From assembly GCA_041615815.1 (NCBI GenBank), contig JBFJCP010000011.1:32001-96000 (forward strand): 64,000 nt of DNA, given 5' to 3'. The notes under the pieces were generated by a model. The model was not told the DNA's origin and searched no databases. It saw only the letters and a list, made by a program, of their open reading frames with translations. This document shows positions 31,776-37,629 of the stretch, in pieces; the stretch's first letter is position 1, and every line of letters begins with the position of its first letter. Origin of the DNA: Gemmatimonadales bacterium (lineage in GTDB: Bacteria > Gemmatimonadota > Gemmatimonadetes > Gemmatimonadales > GWC2-71-9). A program made the position numbers and the translations under genes.

Positions 31776-33080
31776 TCAATGCCGAGCCGTGGGAGCATCC
31801 CATGAGGGGTCGATTCCCCAGGCGTCGAGCATCTCGATTTGCGCGTTGCTCGGTGCTCGTTCTTGTTCGAGGCGCGCCGCCACCGCTTCGACGTCGCGCA
31901 TGACCCGAAGGGCATTGAGCCCGATCACCTTCTTGGCATCCTCGTCGCTCCATCCTCGGCGGAGCAGCTCGGCGATGAGCGCCGGAAAAGTCGAGACGTC
32001 CTCGAGTCCGATCGGCGGGACGTCAATGCCGTCGAGATCAGACCCCAGACCCACATGATCGACACCCGCTACGTCCCGGACGTGTTCGATGAGATCGGCC
32101 ACCACTTTGATATCGGGACGCGGCATGGGGTGCGTTCTCGTCCAGGCTCGGACAGAATCTTGGGCGGCGACACTGTCACCCGTCGTTTCGAACACGCGCG
32201 TACGGAGGGCATTTCGCTCGAGTCCCCATTGCCGCGCTGGCTCGTGAATGAAGGAGGCAACGTAGTTCACCATCATGATGCCGCCATTATCCCGCAGAGC
32301 GCGGGTGACGTCGTCGGGTACGTTACGTTTGTGCGGCGTGAGGACGCGGGGCGATGAATGGGAGAAGATGACGGGGGCTTCGGTCACCCCGAGGACGTCC
32401 CACATGGTCGAATCCGAAACGTGCGAGATGTCGACGAGCATGCCGAGACGATTCATCTCCCGTACGACCTCTTCTCCAAAAGCCGTGAGGCCGCCGTGCA
32501 CGAGCGTGTCGGTGGACGCGTCCGCCCAGTCCGTATTTCGAGAGTGGGTGAGCGTGAGATACCGGATGCCGAGACGGTGGAAGCCACGGAGGAGGGCAAG
32601 CGAGTTCTCGATCATGTGTCCGCCCTCGAGCCCGAGGAGCGATGCCACTTTCCCGGACCGGTGGATCCGCGTGATGTCGTCTGCCGTCAACGCTATCTCG
32701 AAGGCCTGGGGATAACGGGCCACCATACGGTACACGACATCCGTCTGCTCCATGCCGGCGCGAGCGGCGTTGTGCTTGTCGAACGCGACCGGCGTGTAGA
32801 TGGACCAGAACTGGCCTCCCACCAACCCGTCACGAAGCCGCGGAATGTCGGTCATGATTTGAGGCTGTGGGCGCGAGATATCCAGCGAATCGAAGCTCAG
32901 TCCATAATTGACCCGGAGCTCCCACGGCAGATCGTTGTGCCCGTCGATCAGCGGCACCTCGCGCATGAGGGCGCGAGCGCGCTCGAGATACGGATCACCG
33001 GCTTGGGCTGACGCACTGCAGCCGGCTACGGAAACGGTGAACGCCCACACCAACGCGATGACGAGAGTTGGACGAGTCAT
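31776..33080 (-). CDS. Membrane dipeptidase (M19) lipoprotein
   Basis: Lipobox VAGC; IDGHNDLPW, GGQFWS, LEGGH, YLTLTH, VDISH, FSHS, GLGSDLDG. Confidence 0.94.
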   Translation of the reverse strand: MTRPTLVIALVWAFTVSVAGCSASAQAGDPYLERARALMREVPLIDGHNDLPWELRVNYGLSFDSLDISRPQPQIMTDIPRLRDGLVGGQFWSIYTPVAFDKHNAARAGMEQTDVVYRMVARYPQAFEIALTADDITRIHRSGKVASLLGLEGGHMIENSLALLRGFHRLGIRYLTLTHSRNTDWADASTDTLVHGGLTAFGEEVVREMNRLGMLVDISHVSDSTMWDVLGVTEAPVIFSHSSPRVLTPHKRNVPDDVTRALRDNGGIMMVNYVASFIHEPARQWGLERNALRTRVFETTGDSVAAQDSVRAWTRTHPMPRPDIKVVADLIEHVRDVAGVDHVGLGSDLDGIDVPPIGLEDVSTFPALIAELLRRGWSDEDAKKVIGLNALRVMRDVEAVAARLEQERAPSNAQIEMLDAWGIDPSWDAPTARH

Positions 33081-33329: not shown

Positions 33330-33581
33330 ATGAGCGACGTCAACTGCGTACGCTGTGGGCAACCCGGCGCAAGATTGGCCGCACCACCCCTTCCGAACGA
33401 GCTCGGCGGACGGATCTACGACTCGATCTGTCAGCGGTGTTGGGGCGAGTGGCTGCAGCATCAGACCGCGATGATCAACCACTATGGCCTCGATCTGCGA
33501 GAGGCTGAGGCCCGGAAGTTCCTGACCGAACAGACGGAGCAGTATCTCTTTGGCCAACCGAAAGCCCCCTCCTCGGGCTAA
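33330..33581 (+). CDS. yggX: YggX-family Fe(II)-trafficking / oxidative damage protection protein
   Basis: V.C....L..PP.P.ELG.RIY..I...CW.EW..HQT..IN...L......ARKFL.EQ...YLF pattern. Confidence 0.85.
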   Translation: MSDVNCVRCGQPGARLAAPPLPNELGGRIYDSICQRCWGEWLQHQTAMINHYGLDLREAEARKFLTEQTEQYLFGQPKAPSSG

Positions 33582-34089
33582 GGCCCACGTCGGCCTCGTC
33601 GTGAATGGCGAGCCGACGGAGGTTTCGTTCGCCCCCCACAAAACGCTCCTCGAAGTTCTTCGAGAAGATCTTGACCTCACCGGCACGAAGCATGGGTGCG
33701 AGCTTGGTGAATGCGGCACCTGCGCGGTCTTGGTGGACGGGCAACCGGTGCTCTCGTGCCTCGTGTTGGGGCTGGCCTGCGAGGGCCACGAAGTCCGTAC
33801 CGTCGAGGGGATGCGGGATGGACCAGACCTCCATCCATTGCAGCAGGCTTTCGCGGAACTCGGTGCTGCCCAATGTGGCTACTGCACACCGGGGTTCCTG
33901 CTGACCGCCGAAGCGCTACTGCGCCACAACCCATCGCCTTCCCGAGAAGAGATCAAGCACGCGCTCGCTGGAAATCTCTGCCGCTGCACCGGATACATCA
34001 AAATCTACGAGGCGGTGGAGCTGGCCGCTGCCCGCATTCGCGGCGAGCACGCCGAGCCAGCGCGAGAGGCCGTGTATGGACGGGAGTAA
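33550..34089 (+). CDS. 2x[2Fe-2S] small subunit of a xanthine dehydrogenase-family enzyme (HcrC/CoxS-like)
   Basis: GTKHGCELGECGTCAV..SCL, AQCGYCTPG, GNLCRCTGY. Confidence 0.95.
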   Translation: MANRKPPPRAKAHVGLVVNGEPTEVSFAPHKTLLEVLREDLDLTGTKHGCELGECGTCAVLVDGQPVLSCLVLGLACEGHEVRTVEGMRDGPDLHPLQQAFAELGAAQCGYCTPGFLLTAEALLRHNPSPSREEIKHALAGNLCRCTGYIKIYEAVELAAARIRGEHAEPAREAVYGRE

Positions 34090-36616
34090 GGGTCGGAAGG
34101 ACGGAAAGTTGGCAGGGAGGAAGGGTTCCGACCAACCTTCCCGCGAGGCCGGTTTTCGCGTCGTCGGCACGCCCCGCTGGAAGGTCGATGCCGCGGCCAA
34201 GGTCACCGGTGAAACCCTGTTTGCCGACGACCTCTTCCTTCCCCGGATGCTCTACGCACGAATCCTCCGGAGCACAGAGCCGCACGCGCGGATTCGATCC
34301 GTCGATACGTCGCGGGCCGAGGCCATCCCCGGGGTGAAGGCCGTCCTCACCGGGGCGGCGCTGCCCATACCGTTTGGCATTCTTCCCGTGAGCCAAGACG
34401 AGCATGCGCTCGTACCAGACAAGGTCCGCTTCGTTGGTGATCCCGTGGCCGCTGTCGCCGCGATCAGCGAAGAGATCGCCACGTCTGCGGTGGACGCCAT
34501 TCACGTCGAGTACGAGCCTCTCGATACCATCGGCTCCATCGAGGAGGCCGTGGACACGATCGAGCCGCGAATCCACGATTACGGCCCGCTCGGCAATTTC
34601 CACAAGCTCATCGACCTCGAATTCGGGGACGTGGACGAAGCCCTGGCCGCCGCGGAGCATGTCCGCGAGGATCTGTACTTCTACGAGGGCAACACGCACC
34701 TCGCCATGGAGCAGCACGCTGCCCTCGCCGAGTGGTCGGCGGACGAGAAGCTCACGCTGTGGAGCGCCACCCAGACACCGCACTATGTGCATCGGGCGCT
34801 GTCGAAGGTACTGGCGATCCCGGCGGCGCATATCCGGGTGATCGCCTGCCCCAACGGCGGTGGCTTTGGCGGTAAGAGCGATCCATTCAGCCATGAGATC
34901 GTCGTGGCGAAGCTTGCCATGCTCACCGGCCGTCCCGTCAAGATCACACTGACCCGCGAGGAGGTGTTCTACTGCCATCGCGGGCGTCATCCCACCCTGA
35001 TGTGGGTGAAGACCGGCGTGTCGCATGATGGCACGATCCGCGGGATGCATTTCCGCACCTTGTTGGACGGCGGCGCTTACGGGTCCTACGGTGTAGCAAG
35101 CACCTATTACACAGGTGCGTTGCAGACGGTCACCTACCAGGTAGACCGCTATCGCTTTCAGGGAGCGCGGGTTTTCACCAACAAGGCCCCGTGTGGCCCC
35201 AAGCGGGGCCACGGTACGCCGCAACCGCGGTTCGCTCTCGAGATCCACATGGACAAGATCGCAGAGGACCTCGGCATGGACCCCGCCGACCTTCGCCTTC
35301 AGCACCTGGCGCCAGCGGGCTCGCTCACCGCCAACTACCTGTCCATCGGATCCATGGGATTACGCGCGTGCATCCACAAAGTGACCGAAGGCGCCCGTTG
35401 GAAGGATCGCTTCCGTAAGCTGCCGCACGGTAAGGGCATCGGACTCGCCTGCTCCAGCTACATCAGCGGTGCGGGCGTGGCGATCTATTGGAACAACATG
35501 CCGCATTCCGGCGTGCAGCTGAAATGCGACCGCAGTGGGGGCGTGACAGTGTTCTGTGGTTCGACGGATATCGGGCAGGGTTCGGATTCGATCCTGGCAT
35601 ACATCGCTGCTGAAGTGCTGGGGATCGAACCGCTCGACATCCGAGTGGTCACGGCAGACACAGACCTGACTCCGGTAGACCTCGGGAGCTATTCGAGCCG
35701 GGTCACCCTCATGACGGGGAATGCAGCGCTCCAAGCCGCCGAACGTGCCCGCGACCTCATTGCCCGCGCGGCGTCCAAGAAGCTCAACGTGAGCCGCGAC
35801 CGACTCGTATTCGCAGATCGCCGCGTGTTCGACGCTGAGGACCCGGAGCGCGGGTCGAGCTTTGCGGAAGCGGTGCAGCTGGCCGAAGCGGAGTTCGGAA
35901 CCGTGGGGACCGTCGGATCCTACACGCCGCCCAACAGCGCTGGGCGGTACCGGGGCGCCGGAGTTGGCCCGTCACCGGCGTACTCGTACAGCGCCGCCGT
36001 CGTGGAAGTGGAAGTGGATCCCGACACGGGGACCGTGCTCGTCCCCAAAATCTGGATCGCGCACGACGTGGGCCGCTCCATCAATCCCATCAACGTGATA
36101 GGACAGGTAGAGGGCAGCGTGTATATGGGCCTCGGCGAAGCCCTCATGGAGGAGATGGCGTACCGTAGCAATCGGAACCTGGTGCACAAGATCCCGAGTC
36201 TCCTGGAATACAAGAGCCCCACGACGCTCGAGATGTCGGACGTGGTGACGTATCTCATCGAGGATCCCGATCCCAACGGCCCGTTTGGTGCCAAGGAGGT
36301 GGGTCAAGGTCCACTGCTTCCCATTCCTCCCGCGATCGCCAATGCGGTCTACGACGCCGTGGGTGTCCGTATCGACGAGGTTCCGATCACACCTGAGAAG
36401 GTACTGAAGGCCCTGAAGCAAAAAGCCGCTGGGCTCGAGCCACGGTTCGGACCAAAGAGCTTCCCCGTAATCCCGTGGCCCGAACCGATTCGGATACCGC
36501 CCCCATGGGAAGGTGGTGATGGGAGAGCAGCAGCGGCAGAGGCAGCAGGTAGCGGAGGGAGAGCGGGTCGTGCTGCCGCCGCTGCCAGCCCATTCCTCGA
36601 GGAGCGCCAACACTAG
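34076..36616 (+). CDS. Molybdopterin-binding large subunit, 4-hydroxybenzoyl-CoA reductase alpha (HcrA)-like
   Basis: KVTG, VRFVGDPVAAV, TQTPH, GGGFGGK, PCGPKRGHG, DIGQGS, GSYSSRVT, GQVEG, GPFGAKEVGQG. Confidence 0.9.
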   Translation: MDGSKGRKDGKLAGRKGSDQPSREAGFRVVGTPRWKVDAAAKVTGETLFADDLFLPRMLYARILRSTEPHARIRSVDTSRAEAIPGVKAVLTGAALPIPFGILPVSQDEHALVPDKVRFVGDPVAAVAAISEEIATSAVDAIHVEYEPLDTIGSIEEAVDTIEPRIHDYGPLGNFHKLIDLEFGDVDEALAAAEHVREDLYFYEGNTHLAMEQHAALAEWSADEKLTLWSATQTPHYVHRALSKVLAIPAAHIRVIACPNGGGFGGKSDPFSHEIVVAKLAMLTGRPVKITLTREEVFYCHRGRHPTLMWVKTGVSHDGTIRGMHFRTLLDGGAYGSYGVASTYYTGALQTVTYQVDRYRFQGARVFTNKAPCGPKRGHGTPQPRFALEIHMDKIAEDLGMDPADLRLQHLAPAGSLTANYLSIGSMGLRACIHKVTEGARWKDRFRKLPHGKGIGLACSSYISGAGVAIYWNNMPHSGVQLKCDRSGGVTVFCGSTDIGQGSDSILAYIAAEVLGIEPLDIRVVTADTDLTPVDLGSYSSRVTLMTGNAALQAAERARDLIARAASKKLNVSRDRLVFADRRVFDAEDPERGSSFAEAVQLAEAEFGTVGTVGSYTPPNSAGRYRGAGVGPSPAYSYSAAVVEVEVDPDTGTVLVPKIWIAHDVGRSINPINVIGQVEGSVYMGLGEALMEEMAYRSNRNLVHKIPSLLEYKSPTTLEMSDVVTYLIEDPDPNGPFGAKEVGQGPLLPIPPAIANAVYDAVGVRIDEVPITPEKVLKALKQKAAGLEPRFGPKSFPVIPWPEPIRIPPPWEGGDGRAAAAEAAGSGGRAGRAAAAASPFLEERQH

Positions 36617-36618
36617 CC

Positions 36619-37629
36619 ATGCTCCGCCTGCCGTCGTTCGACTACCTCCAGCCCAAAACGCTCCGGGAAGCGCTCAAGATGAAACAGGAGGCCGGGGCGG
36701 TGGGGATGTATGTGGCCGGCGGCACCGATCTCTATCCCAACATGAAGCGCCGTCACCAGGAGCCAAAGGTGGTGATCTCGCTGGCGGCGATCCGTGCGCT
36801 GCGGCGCATCACCGGGGGAACGAGAGGGTCTGCACTCTCCGTGGGAGCGGGTGTCACGCTCACCGAGCTGCGCCGGCACCGGAGAATCCGTTCGCGTTAC
36901 GCCGCCGTCGCCAAGTCGGCCGAGCTGATCAGCACACCCATCCTACAGAACATGGGCACGCTCGGTGGCAACCTCTGTCTCGATACACGATGCAACTACT
37001 ACAACCAGGGATACGAGTGGCGGAAGTCCATCAACTTTTGCATGAAGAAGGACGGCGACATTTGCTGGGTGGCTCCGTCGAGCCCGCGCTGCTGGGCAAT
37101 ATGCTCGAGCGACCTCGCGCCGGTGGCGGTGGCGATGGGGGCCGACTTCACCCTTGTGGGGCCACAAGGCGAACGGGTGGTACCGGCCAGCCGGTTTTAC
37201 CACGACGACGGCATCAATTACCTGACGAAGCAGCCTGACGAGATCCTCACCGACATGAGGCTACCCGCCACCAACGGGTGGGATGCCGTGTATTGGAAAC
37301 TGCGTCGGCGAGGCTCGTTCGATTTTCCGGTCCTTGGAGTCGCCGCGTGGATTCGATGGGAAGGTTCGCGCGCGGCCGAGGCACGTATCGTCCTTGGCGC
37401 CGTGGCGAGCCATCCATTGGAGGTGGCCACTGCGGCGGATGCCATCGTGGGCACGGAACTGGACGATGACGCGATCGGGGCCGCAGCCGATGCTGCGTAC
37501 AAGCCCTCGAAGCCAATGGACAACACGGACTTCGGTCTGGCGTGGCGAAAGCACATGACGCGGGAGTACGTAAAGGGCGCGTTGAAGGAACTGCGCGAAC
37601 GTGTTCGTCGCGCCGGGATGGGCCGCTAG
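36619..37629 (+). CDS. FAD subunit with [4Fe-4S] insertion (HcrB-like)
   Basis: AGGTDL, NMGTLGGNLC, Cys insert C-x15-C-x7-C-x8-C, KLRRRGSFDFP. Confidence 0.92.
   Translation: MLRLPSFDYLQPKTLREALKMKQEAGAVGMYVAGGTDLYPNMKRRHQEPKVVISLAAIRALRRITGGTRGSALSVGAGVTLTELRRHRRIRSRYAAVAKSAELISTPILQNMGTLGGNLCLDTRCNYYNQGYEWRKSINFCMKKDGDICWVAPSSPRCWAICSSDLAPVAVAMGADFTLVGPQGERVVPASRFYHDDGINYLTKQPDEILTDMRLPATNGWDAVYWKLRRRGSFDFPVLGVAAWIRWEGSRAAEARIVLGAVASHPLEVATAADAIVGTELDDDAIGAAADAAYKPSKPMDNTDFGLAWRKHMTREYVKGALKELRERVRRAGMGR

Follow-up and report, generated by a model that had tools for sequence, protein, structure and literature searches.

An operon in the 64,000-nucleotide stretch of Gemmatimonadales DNA analysed here (the window) encodes a molybdenum subunit with a glutamine, Gln744, where the xanthine oxidase family has its catalytic glutamate (the equivalent of bovine Glu1261). 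On the sequence comparisons given below, this is a fixed, selected replacement of that glutamate, carried by a large branch of enzymes that spans several phyla. The operon appears to specify a complete Mo-flavin-Fe-S enzyme of the 4-HBCR (4-hydroxybenzoyl-CoA reductase) type, and the reading we put first, to which we commit ourselves a little less than halfway, is that the enzyme is likely to be working, with a Mo site that lacks the usual carboxylate base. Given that Gln is fixed under strong selection throughout a large multi-phylum branch, the enzyme likely works unlike its textbook relatives, and the label that it usually receives is probably wrong.

A glutamine at the catalytic-glutamate position

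Nucleotides 36290-36310 read GCC AAG GAG GTG GGT CAA GGT, which in the alpha reading frame (Table 1) gives A739 K740 E741 V742 G743 Q744 G745. In phmmer alignments of alpha with known structures, the residue facing Q744 is the Glu of GAKEASEG in the 4-HBCR alpha subunit (1rm6_A, E 1.4e-180), and likewise that of GAKGIGES (8uem_A) and of GAKGLGEI (7dqx_A), these being the three alignments examined. Thus where 4-HBCR has GAKEASEG the window's alpha has GAKEVGQG, and the replacement of the catalytic Glu claimed in the earlier note is confirmed by translation and by alignment. Chance is not an issue here, since the claim concerns a single residue at a defined homologous position. A 2026 review describes this glutamate as essential, the base that activates Mo-OH in the xanthine oxidase family. 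Of the nearest relatives, represented by 129 full-length sequences at 50% identity, 113 have E in this column, 4 have Q and 12 have some other residue.

Table 1. Features of the operon, in positions of the window
Feature	Positions	Strand	Basis
YggX-like Fe(2+)-trafficking gene, 83 aa, directly upstream of gamma	33330..33581	+	Pfam PF04362 Iron_traffic, 83.2 bits vs cut-off 27
Gamma subunit, predicted two [2Fe-2S]	33550..34089	+	Pfam Fer2_2 and Fer2; best PDB match 1rm6_C, E 1.5e-46
Alpha subunit, molybdopterin (Mo-MCD) catalytic, 846 aa (P0001)	34076..36616	+	Pfam PF01315, PF02738, PF20256; 1rm6_A
Segment A341-T353 (ASTYYTGALQTVT), differs between Gln clade and Glu-bearing sisters	35096..35134	+	column comparison
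Gln744 codon CAA, position of the family's catalytic Glu	36305..36307	+	translation; phmmer alignments; Gln in relatives (counts in text)
C-terminal extension, residues 786-816 (...RFGPKSFPVIPWPEPIRIPPPWEGGDG), Gln-clade-specific	36431..36523	+	alignment
Beta subunit, FAD-binding, 336 aa	36619..37629	+	Pfam FAD_binding_5 and CO_deh_flav_C; 1rm6_B, E 4.4e-58
Beta Cys-rich insertion C125-x15-C141-x7-C149-x8-C158, matching the 4-HBCR beta [4Fe-4S] loop	36991..37092	+	alignment to 1rm6_B

Conservation of the glutamine is complete in each set of close relatives that we assembled. Gln occupies the position in 120/120 of the closest database proteins (clusters), with no sign of the uniform Glu expected had the observation been wrong; it is present in 30/30 Gemmatimonadota genomes (codon CAG in 25, CAA in 5), and in all 72 of the readable loci (those whose contig includes the motif), which come from at least six phyla (Gemmatimonadota, Acidobacteriota, Planctomycetota, Methylomirabilota, Myxococcota and others). 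The earlier note had also allowed for an error or a private mutation, given that CAA is a single base away from GAA. This explanation, whether as a sequencing or assembly error or as a mutation peculiar to one organism, is one to which we attach practically no weight, and it is already refuted: more than 200 relatives were examined and all have Gln, both of its codons are in use, and an independent soil run, the only informative one of four, gave a contig that keeps CAA.

In the tree, the Gln rows (12/12) form one branch with an SH-aLRT of 100, whose sister is the Glu-bearing P0123 (support 99). Glu is retained in 16/16 other HCR-like loci of Gemmatimonadota, and in three paralogues within the same genome. 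All Gln-bearing rows taken together would imply at least three changes, as read from two trees. The Gln-type enzyme is mostly present in single copy, adjoining housekeeping genes.

With the sole residue held essential for catalysis missing, the Mo subunit might be thought to have lost catalysis altogether, the complex persisting either with no catalytic function or purely for the transfer of electrons. We consider such a pseudoenzyme improbable. Inside the Gln clade, dN/dS over the whole alpha subunit is 0.028-0.102 (14 pairs), which indicates strong purifying selection, and identity between its phyla, six or more in number, is 65-79%. The Mo-cofactor motifs are retained, as is a conserved, clade-specific pocket segment (see below). 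Furthermore, a gene for a MocA-like cytidylyltransferase, which would serve in cofactor maturation, is linked to the operon in 26/85 loci, downstream and on the same strand. In the window's own genome, TIGR03310 (MocA) gives no match, and PF12804 gives a candidate NTP_transf_3 gene, located elsewhere in the genome. That Mo-MCD with a terminal sulfido ligand may be bound is indicated, indirectly, by the linked MocA-like gene and this candidate only.

Relation to 4-hydroxybenzoyl-CoA reductase

Our reference for comparison was the Thauera aromatica enzyme HcrCAB (PDB 1RM6/1SB3; NCBIfam equivalogs TIGR03193-TIGR03195). Like HcrCAB, the window operon has three subunits in the gene order gamma-alpha-beta, and 4-HBCR is the top match of every one of them in both PDB and NCBIfam. 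The alpha subunit has the a/b hammerhead and the two MoCo-binding domains, all far over their cut-offs, and apart from the Glu it keeps the expected motifs, namely Q233, G262-K267 (GGGFGGK), R377 and Q501-G502 (GSTDIGQG), in columns that show a conservation of 90% or more across 76 relatives. Its AF2 model (pLDDT 90.7) has a predicted fold like that of 4-HBCR; in Foldseek, it superposes on 1rm6_D with a target-normalised TM of 0.97 and an rmsd of 1.6 A over 766 columns, at 40-41% identity. In gamma, Cys 50, 55, 58 and 70 (Cx4Cx2Cx11C) and Cys 109, 112, 144 and 146 (Cx2Cx31CxC) are all present, so that, by motifs and domains, the two [2Fe-2S] clusters and the FAD subunit of the family are represented. 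The four cysteines of the beta insertion (Cx15Cx7Cx8C) pair one-to-one, at the same spacing, with those of TRC...GYC...DKC...DRC in 1rm6_B, and Unciuleac et al. are said to have found in 2004 that these bind the [4Fe-4S] cluster of 4-HBCR. The statement in the earlier note that the remaining cofactor motifs are intact therefore stands for all three subunits.

Top matches for three subunits, the shared gene order and the [4Fe-4S] loop, together with the fact that many sources give the relatives this name, speak for the automatic annotation being right, with the enzyme a true 4-hydroxybenzoyl-CoA reductase in which a Glu-to-Gln exchange is tolerated. We nevertheless find this highly improbable. 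All three subunits fall below the equivalog cut-offs (alpha, TIGR03194, 811 vs 994.55 bits; gamma, TIGR03193, 186.1 vs 257.8; beta, TIGR03195, 285.8 vs 404.55), and the identity of alpha to that of 1RM6 is no higher than 40-41%. Besides having Gln in place of the catalytic Glu, the window's alpha differs from that of 4-HBCR in the pocket segment (ASTYYTGALQ vs IITILYTGALM), which is also unlike that of P0140, in reading PKRGHG where 4-HBCR reads AMRGHG, and in its added, conserved C-terminal extension.

The genomic setting differs as well. In the window's own genome, which is 95.7% complete, none of the three models that made up our search for the benzoyl-CoA pathway scored above its cut-off: BoxB (187.7 vs 499.1), benzoate-CoA ligase (241.8 vs 375.25) and BcrB (197.9 vs 486.55), class II benzoyl-CoA reductase lying outside this search. 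Nor was any aromatic-CoA gene (Box gene, benzoate-CoA ligase or BcrB) found among the recurrent neighbours of 85 loci, in a scan that covered 36 of 41 clusters, five having been omitted as likely shadow ORFs. Our conclusion from the sequence evidence is that the window enzyme is probably something other than 4-hydroxybenzoyl-CoA reductase, and that the usual label is probably wrong.

Nothing in the gene neighbourhoods of the 85 loci points to a substrate, a partner pathway or an electron donor. By tblastn, 13 further, distinct Gln-type loci of Gemmatimonadota also carry the YggX-like gene immediately upstream of the operon. Genes for an M19 dipeptidase (divergent), RidA, DinB and an M14 peptidase recur beside the operon only within Gemmatimonadales, and of the 85 loci, 20 have panC upstream, 18 panB and 13 folK; we considered both groups as a clue to the substrate, and read them as lineage synteny.

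Substrate pocket, electron flow and possible chemistry

The nearest relatives of the Gln clade, at 47-56% identity, are Glu-bearing HCR-like enzymes, all uncharacterised: P0123, from Ignavibacteriales, in which gamma and alpha are fused, and those of the P0125/P0128 type in other Gemmatimonadota families. The motifs CGPKRGHG and GAKE.G.GPL are common to both groups, whereas these relatives keep the Glu, have (I/V)TTYY(S/A)GQLL in the pocket, and are without the C-terminal extension. The difference in the pocket is sharp: A341, S342, T346, A348, Q350 and T353 each occur in 95% or more of the 121 sequences of the Gln clade, and in no more than 1/16 Glu-bearing relatives. We take the segment A341-T353 to correspond to the Leu873/Ser876 region of bovine xanthine oxidase, which would place it at the substrate pocket, and by this analogy it probably lines that pocket. 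The polar pocket residues S342, T346, Q350, S461 and Y638 make up a set particular to the Gln clade. Similarly, the C-terminal extension is conserved in at least 95% of the 121 sequences, and the 16 Glu-bearing relatives mostly have a gap in its place; it is modelled at a pLDDT of 97 (residues 791-800), 92 (801-810) and 76 (811-820). The pocket segment and the extension, both specific to the clade, suggest a different substrate.

Altered chemistry at the Mo centre, as proposed in the earlier note, seems to us the most reasonable interpretation of these sequences, and the enzyme is probably both functional and reductive. The extra [4Fe-4S] cluster of beta would take up electrons from a low-potential donor, and these would travel by way of FAD and then both [2Fe-2S] clusters of gamma to the Mo-MCD in alpha, this being the 'inverted' flow of 4-HBCR. 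The reduced Mo would then take an oxygen function off a substrate, by reductive dehydroxylation or deoxygenation, with the neutral Gln744 forming a hydrogen bond to the Mo-bound oxygen and with protons supplied from elsewhere. The direction of flow is inferred from the [4Fe-4S] loop only, a feature that the Glu-bearing relatives also seem to have.

There is precedent for a reductive member of the family beyond 4-HBCR. One report describes the urolithin C 9-dehydroxylase of Enterocloster bolteae (UcdCFO/Ucdh) as a reductive xanthine-oxidase-family enzyme that carries out phenol dehydroxylation, and its authors call it the second reductive case after 4-HBCR (PMC12771579). Ucdh shares no more than about 33% identity with 4-HBCR, and we liken it to the window enzyme by its description. 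Counting against the explanation that we favour is that both characterised reductive dehydroxylases of the family, 4-HBCR and UcdO, keep the Glu, which in UcdO is E741 (PMC11760930); a reductive direction alone thus fails to explain the loss of Glu.

A competing explanation, unlikely in our judgement yet one to be taken seriously, is that the enzyme is a usual oxidative hydroxylase or dehydrogenase in which the missing base is replaced by Glu741, by another pocket residue or by the substrate itself. Oxidative action is the norm for most family members, as stated in PMC12771579; Glu741, three residues ahead of Gln744, is invariant in the Gln clade; and the clade's own set of polar pocket residues might offer a replacement. 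Substitution by Glu741 or by the Lys of PKRGHG (Lys376) had likewise been suggested in the earlier note. However, neither is special to the Gln clade: the Glu-bearing sisters P0123, P0125, P0127 and P0128 read CGPKRGHG and GAKEAGEG, and so have both. Nothing new has arisen to compensate and these are not compensating changes, although both residues could still participate in catalysis. Leimkuhler et al. are also said to have reported in 2004 that exchanges at this position, Glu to Gln among them, abolished the activity of Rhodobacter capsulatus XDH. Finally, a [4Fe-4S] loop in beta characterises the only member of the family that has inverted electron flow. The classical Mo hydroxylases (bovine XO/XDH, R. 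capsulatus XDH, CO dehydrogenase, quinoline 2-oxidoreductase and PaoABC) share the domain set and cofactor motifs of the window enzyme, with E values of 1e-53 to 1e-83 to solved structures, but all have Glu as the general base and a flavin subunit without the [4Fe-4S] loop, and in them electrons leave Mo outwards.

A bolder reading, which we offer as speculative, is that in this highly conserved enzyme the active site has been rebuilt around a neutral glutamine, with a type of reaction new to the family, neither base-catalysed hydroxylation nor the phenol dehydroxylation in which Glu is retained. The substrate might then be a common metabolite of the cell or its environment, and not an aromatic CoA ester, with the activity found across phyla in soil and marine bacteria. 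Our literature searches found no description of a natural Gln variant or of a Gln-type enzyme.

Implications for the xanthine oxidase family

In the xanthine oxidase family the glutamate is regarded as the single catalytic residue that cannot be spared, yet an entire branch lacks it. Should the enzyme prove active, it would represent either a second way to run a Mo-MCD site or a new class of reaction, and the Gln branch is a natural test of the role of the glutamate in reductive family members. There is also a consequence for how genomes are read: thousands of genes in metagenomes from soil, sediment and the sea are called "4-hydroxybenzoyl-CoA reductase" and are taken as evidence of anaerobic aromatic degradation. 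For the Gln branch, what is concluded from that label is probably wrong.

Gln744 at the catalytic glutamate position

The segment at 36290–36310 translates as A739-K-E-V-G-Q744-G, Gln744 being encoded by CAA at 36305–36307. When the alpha (molybdenum) subunit, P0001, is searched against all PDB chains with phmmer, the best match is 1rm6_A, the alpha subunit of 4-hydroxybenzoyl-CoA reductase (hereafter 4-HBCR; E 1.4e-180, residues 30–785), and in that alignment the Glu of GAKEASEG faces Gln744. A Glu is likewise opposite Gln744 in the next two alignments, to 8uem_A (CO dehydrogenase) and 7dqx_A (6-hydroxypseudooxynicotine dehydrogenase). The earlier note was thus correct in placing a Gln where the xanthine oxidase family has its catalytic Glu.

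That note also allowed for a sequencing error or a private mutation, and proposed a homologue alignment and a read-level check. GAKE.GQG occurs in all 120 of the closest 90%-identity clusters listed (the window's own included, the others 74–82% identical), 113 being found with a first pattern and the remaining 7 with a second. We searched 301 Gemmatimonadota genomes, 151 of which gave a match at E ≤ 1e-150 (a tally that includes G157, flagged as unpublished, on which nothing else here depends), and Gln is present in 30 of 30 distinct genomes with returned loci, again counting the window's own. Of these genomes, 25 use the codon CAG and 5 use CAA, so the amino acid has persisted while its codon changed synonymously. 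A contig from X7, an independent soil-metagenome run of a different study and the one of four runs on which this comparison rests, covers 36212–36399 and reads CAA, not GAA; its sole difference is T>C at 36304, synonymous in Gly743. These results exclude both error and private mutation. Across the conserved core, dN/dS (Nei-Gojobori) is 0.028–0.102 in the 14 pairs computed.

Spread of the Gln type and its Glu-bearing relatives

When one genome per species was scanned, 80 best loci were obtained; these are 65–79% identical to P0001 and carry the labels Gemmatimonadota, Acidobacteriota (Blastocatellia, Pyrinomonadaceae, Thermoanaerobaculia, Terriglobia, Vicinamibacterales), Planctomycetota, Methylomirabilota, Myxococcota, Acidimicrobiia and others. 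All 72 loci with the motif on the contig have Gln; the contigs of the other 8 end before it. In an IQ-TREE phylogeny of 37 rows, the 12 rows of the Gln type drawn from these phyla group in a single branch (SH-aLRT 100), with the Glu-bearing P0123 (Ignavibacteriales) as its sister (support 99). The phyla are intermixed within the branch, which suggests horizontal transfer. Two further Gln-bearing relatives, P0124 and P0156, are placed elsewhere, so that the tree requires at least three changes; P0124 may group functionally with the main clade, given that the two share the pocket segment ASTYYTGALQ. The Glu-bearing sisters P0123, P0127, P0131 and P0133 are ~930–950 aa long and the query match starts near residue 170, features that would fit a fused gamma-alpha protein.

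Among the 129 nearest full-length 50%-identity representatives, the Gln744 column holds Glu in 113, Gln in 4 and another residue in 12 (Asp 3, Met 3, Ser 2, and Arg, Ile, Leu and Asn one each), at least one of the two Ser rows being an alignment slip (the motif of P0229 reads GAKGGGES). Glu is retained in all 12 of the ~50%-identical HCR-like loci of Gemmatimonadota (families f4–f8), in 4 of 4 at 43–46% identity, and in three other xanthine-oxidase-family paralogues of the window's own genome. Among the Gemmatimonadota rows listed, the Gln type and the ~50% type never occur in one genome, and one genome, G280, combines the Gln type with a Glu type at 46% identity. Glu is also absent from the uncharacterised P0198, P0228 and P0238, from P0163, from P0188, P0240 and P0270, and from P0268; in one small well-supported clade the position is occupied by Ile, Met or Leu, and individual rows carry Arg, Asp or Asn. 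The 'invariant' Glu therefore holds less strictly among uncharacterised relatives than in the enzymes that have been studied.

Defining a clade-specific position as a residue found in ≥95% of 121 Gln-clade sequences and in at most 1 of 16 Glu-bearing relatives, we obtained 55 positions, Gln744 among them. They include L209 and Q213 (Pro in 15 of the 16 relatives), the segment A341, S342, T346, A348, Q350 and T353, and further S461, S496/T497 and Y638. We take alpha 341–353 to correspond to the Leu873/Ser876/Arg880 stretch of bovine xanthine oxidase, and by this homology it should line the substrate pocket. A C-terminal extension (RFGP..FP..WP...W.EGGDG) is likewise specific to the clade and gapped in most of the 16 relatives; its residues 791–810 are modelled at pLDDT 92–97 (AlphaFold2). 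The model packs this extension onto the protein with good confidence; its conserved motif, rich in Trp and Pro, ends in EGGDG. Glu741 and the Lys of PKRGHG, put forward earlier as substitutes for the missing Glu, are both present in the Glu-bearing sisters P0123, P0125, P0127 and P0128, and so are not compensating novelties.

The operon and its neighbourhoods

The operon encodes the complete xanthine-oxidase-family domain set (Pfam). In NCBIfam each subunit matches its 4-HBCR equivalog model best, yet every score lies under the curated cut-off (alpha 811 vs 994.55, gamma 186.1 vs 257.8, beta 285.8 vs 404.55). Both four-Cys [2Fe-2S] motifs are present in gamma, while beta has a Cys-rich insertion, C125-x15-C141-x7-C149-x8-C158, each Cys of which matches one in the 1rm6_B loop; that loop reportedly binds the extra [4Fe-4S] cluster of 4-HBCR. 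Alpha keeps Q233, GGGFGGK, R377 and DIGQG, in columns ≥90% conserved among 76 relatives, and its AlphaFold2 model (pLDDT 90.7, pTM 0.91) superimposes on 1RM6 alpha with TM 0.97 and rmsd 1.6 Å at 41% identity.

Features of the operon and its surroundings (window positions; occurrence among the 85 loci compared)
Feature	Position	Strand	Occurrence	Remarks
M19 membrane dipeptidase	31776–33080	-		divergently adjacent to operon
YggX-like Fe(2+)-trafficking protein, 83 aa	33330–33581	+		PF04362, 83.2 bits; overlaps gamma's predicted TTG start
Gamma, [2Fe-2S] subunit	33550–34089	+		operon of three genes; predicted TTG start
Alpha, molybdenum subunit, 846 aa (P0001)	34076–36616	+		
C-terminal extension, alpha 786–816	36431–36523	+		
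Beta, FAD subunit	36619–37629	+		
MocA-like molybdenum-cofactor cytidylyltransferase	downstream	same strand	26/85	
panC	upstream	same strand	20/85	
panB	upstream	same strand	18/85	
folK	upstream	same strand	13/85	
Thioredoxin/AhpC-like protein			14/85	
Enoyl-CoA hydratase			13/85	

Gamma is also preceded by the yggX-like gene in another 13 distinct Gln-type loci of Gemmatimonadota, an arrangement absent from all 16 Glu-type loci retrieved. By analogy with E. coli YggX, the gene's product may safeguard the Fe-S clusters of the enzyme in an aerobe, or supply them.

For the wider neighbourhoods we clustered neighbour ORFs from the 80 best loci, the window and four longer Gemmatimonadota loci, and scanned 36 of the 41 clusters found in at least 6 loci, leaving out five as likely shadow ORFs. 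In many loci (L062, L069, L073–L076, L082–L088 and others) a pantothenate/folate block, folK/panB/panC, stands directly 5' of gamma; those sampled bear Acidobacteriota labels. The divergent M19 dipeptidase recurs in three of the four longer Gemmatimonadota loci (L054, L055, L056). RidA, DinB-like and M14 carboxypeptidase genes are often near it. The pairing is probably lineage synteny; less probably, it is tied to the degradation of peptides or amino acids.

None of the 36 clusters is an aryl-CoA ligase, Box or benzoyl-CoA reductase gene, and in the window's own genome (95.7% complete) BoxB (187.7 vs 499.1), benzoate-CoA ligase (241.8 vs 375.25) and BcrB (197.9 vs 486.55) all score under cut-off. 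That genome has at least five xanthine-oxidase-family genes and gives no match to the MocA equivalog TIGR03310 at E ≤ 0.001; the more general NTP_transf_3 matches at C19:28344–28784. The neighbourhoods of the 85 loci name no substrate: they indicate a cofactor-dependent enzyme, often among housekeeping genes, and nothing beyond.

Chemistry at the molybdenum site

The retention of all cluster, FAD and Mo-MCD motifs, together with the linked MocA, points to a working enzyme. A Gln cannot take the proton that a Glu base accepts, and the [4Fe-4S] loop of 4-HBCR feeds low-potential electrons towards Mo. From this loop and the retained machinery we infer that the Gln-type enzyme is reductive. Electrons would pass from a donor to [4Fe-4S], FAD, the two [2Fe-2S] clusters and Mo; the reduced Mo would then strip an oxygen function from the substrate, and Gln744, being neutral, would hydrogen-bond to the Mo-bound oxygen.

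A review assigns the Glu the role of general base, activating Mo-OH so that it can attack the substrate, and calls it essential (PMC13653126). Urolithin C dehydroxylase, Ucdh, has been presented as no more than the second member of the family to dehydroxylate reductively (PMC12771579). The main weakness of a reductive reading is that both characterised reductive members keep Glu where this enzyme has Gln744: 4-HBCR does, as does UcdO of Ucdh at E741 (PMC11760930). The Gln type therefore differs from the known reductases also, and a new kind of Mo-site chemistry is possible.

In build the enzyme resembles 4-HBCR, and it would work in a similar way. It departs from 4-HBCR in its equivalog scores and catalytic Glu, and from the xanthine oxidase family as a whole in one respect, the catalytic Glu. 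Searches of openly available full texts turned up no account of a naturally occurring Gln here. Within a known enzyme architecture, the Gln type is a genuine variant, both conserved and under selection, and it merits experimental work.
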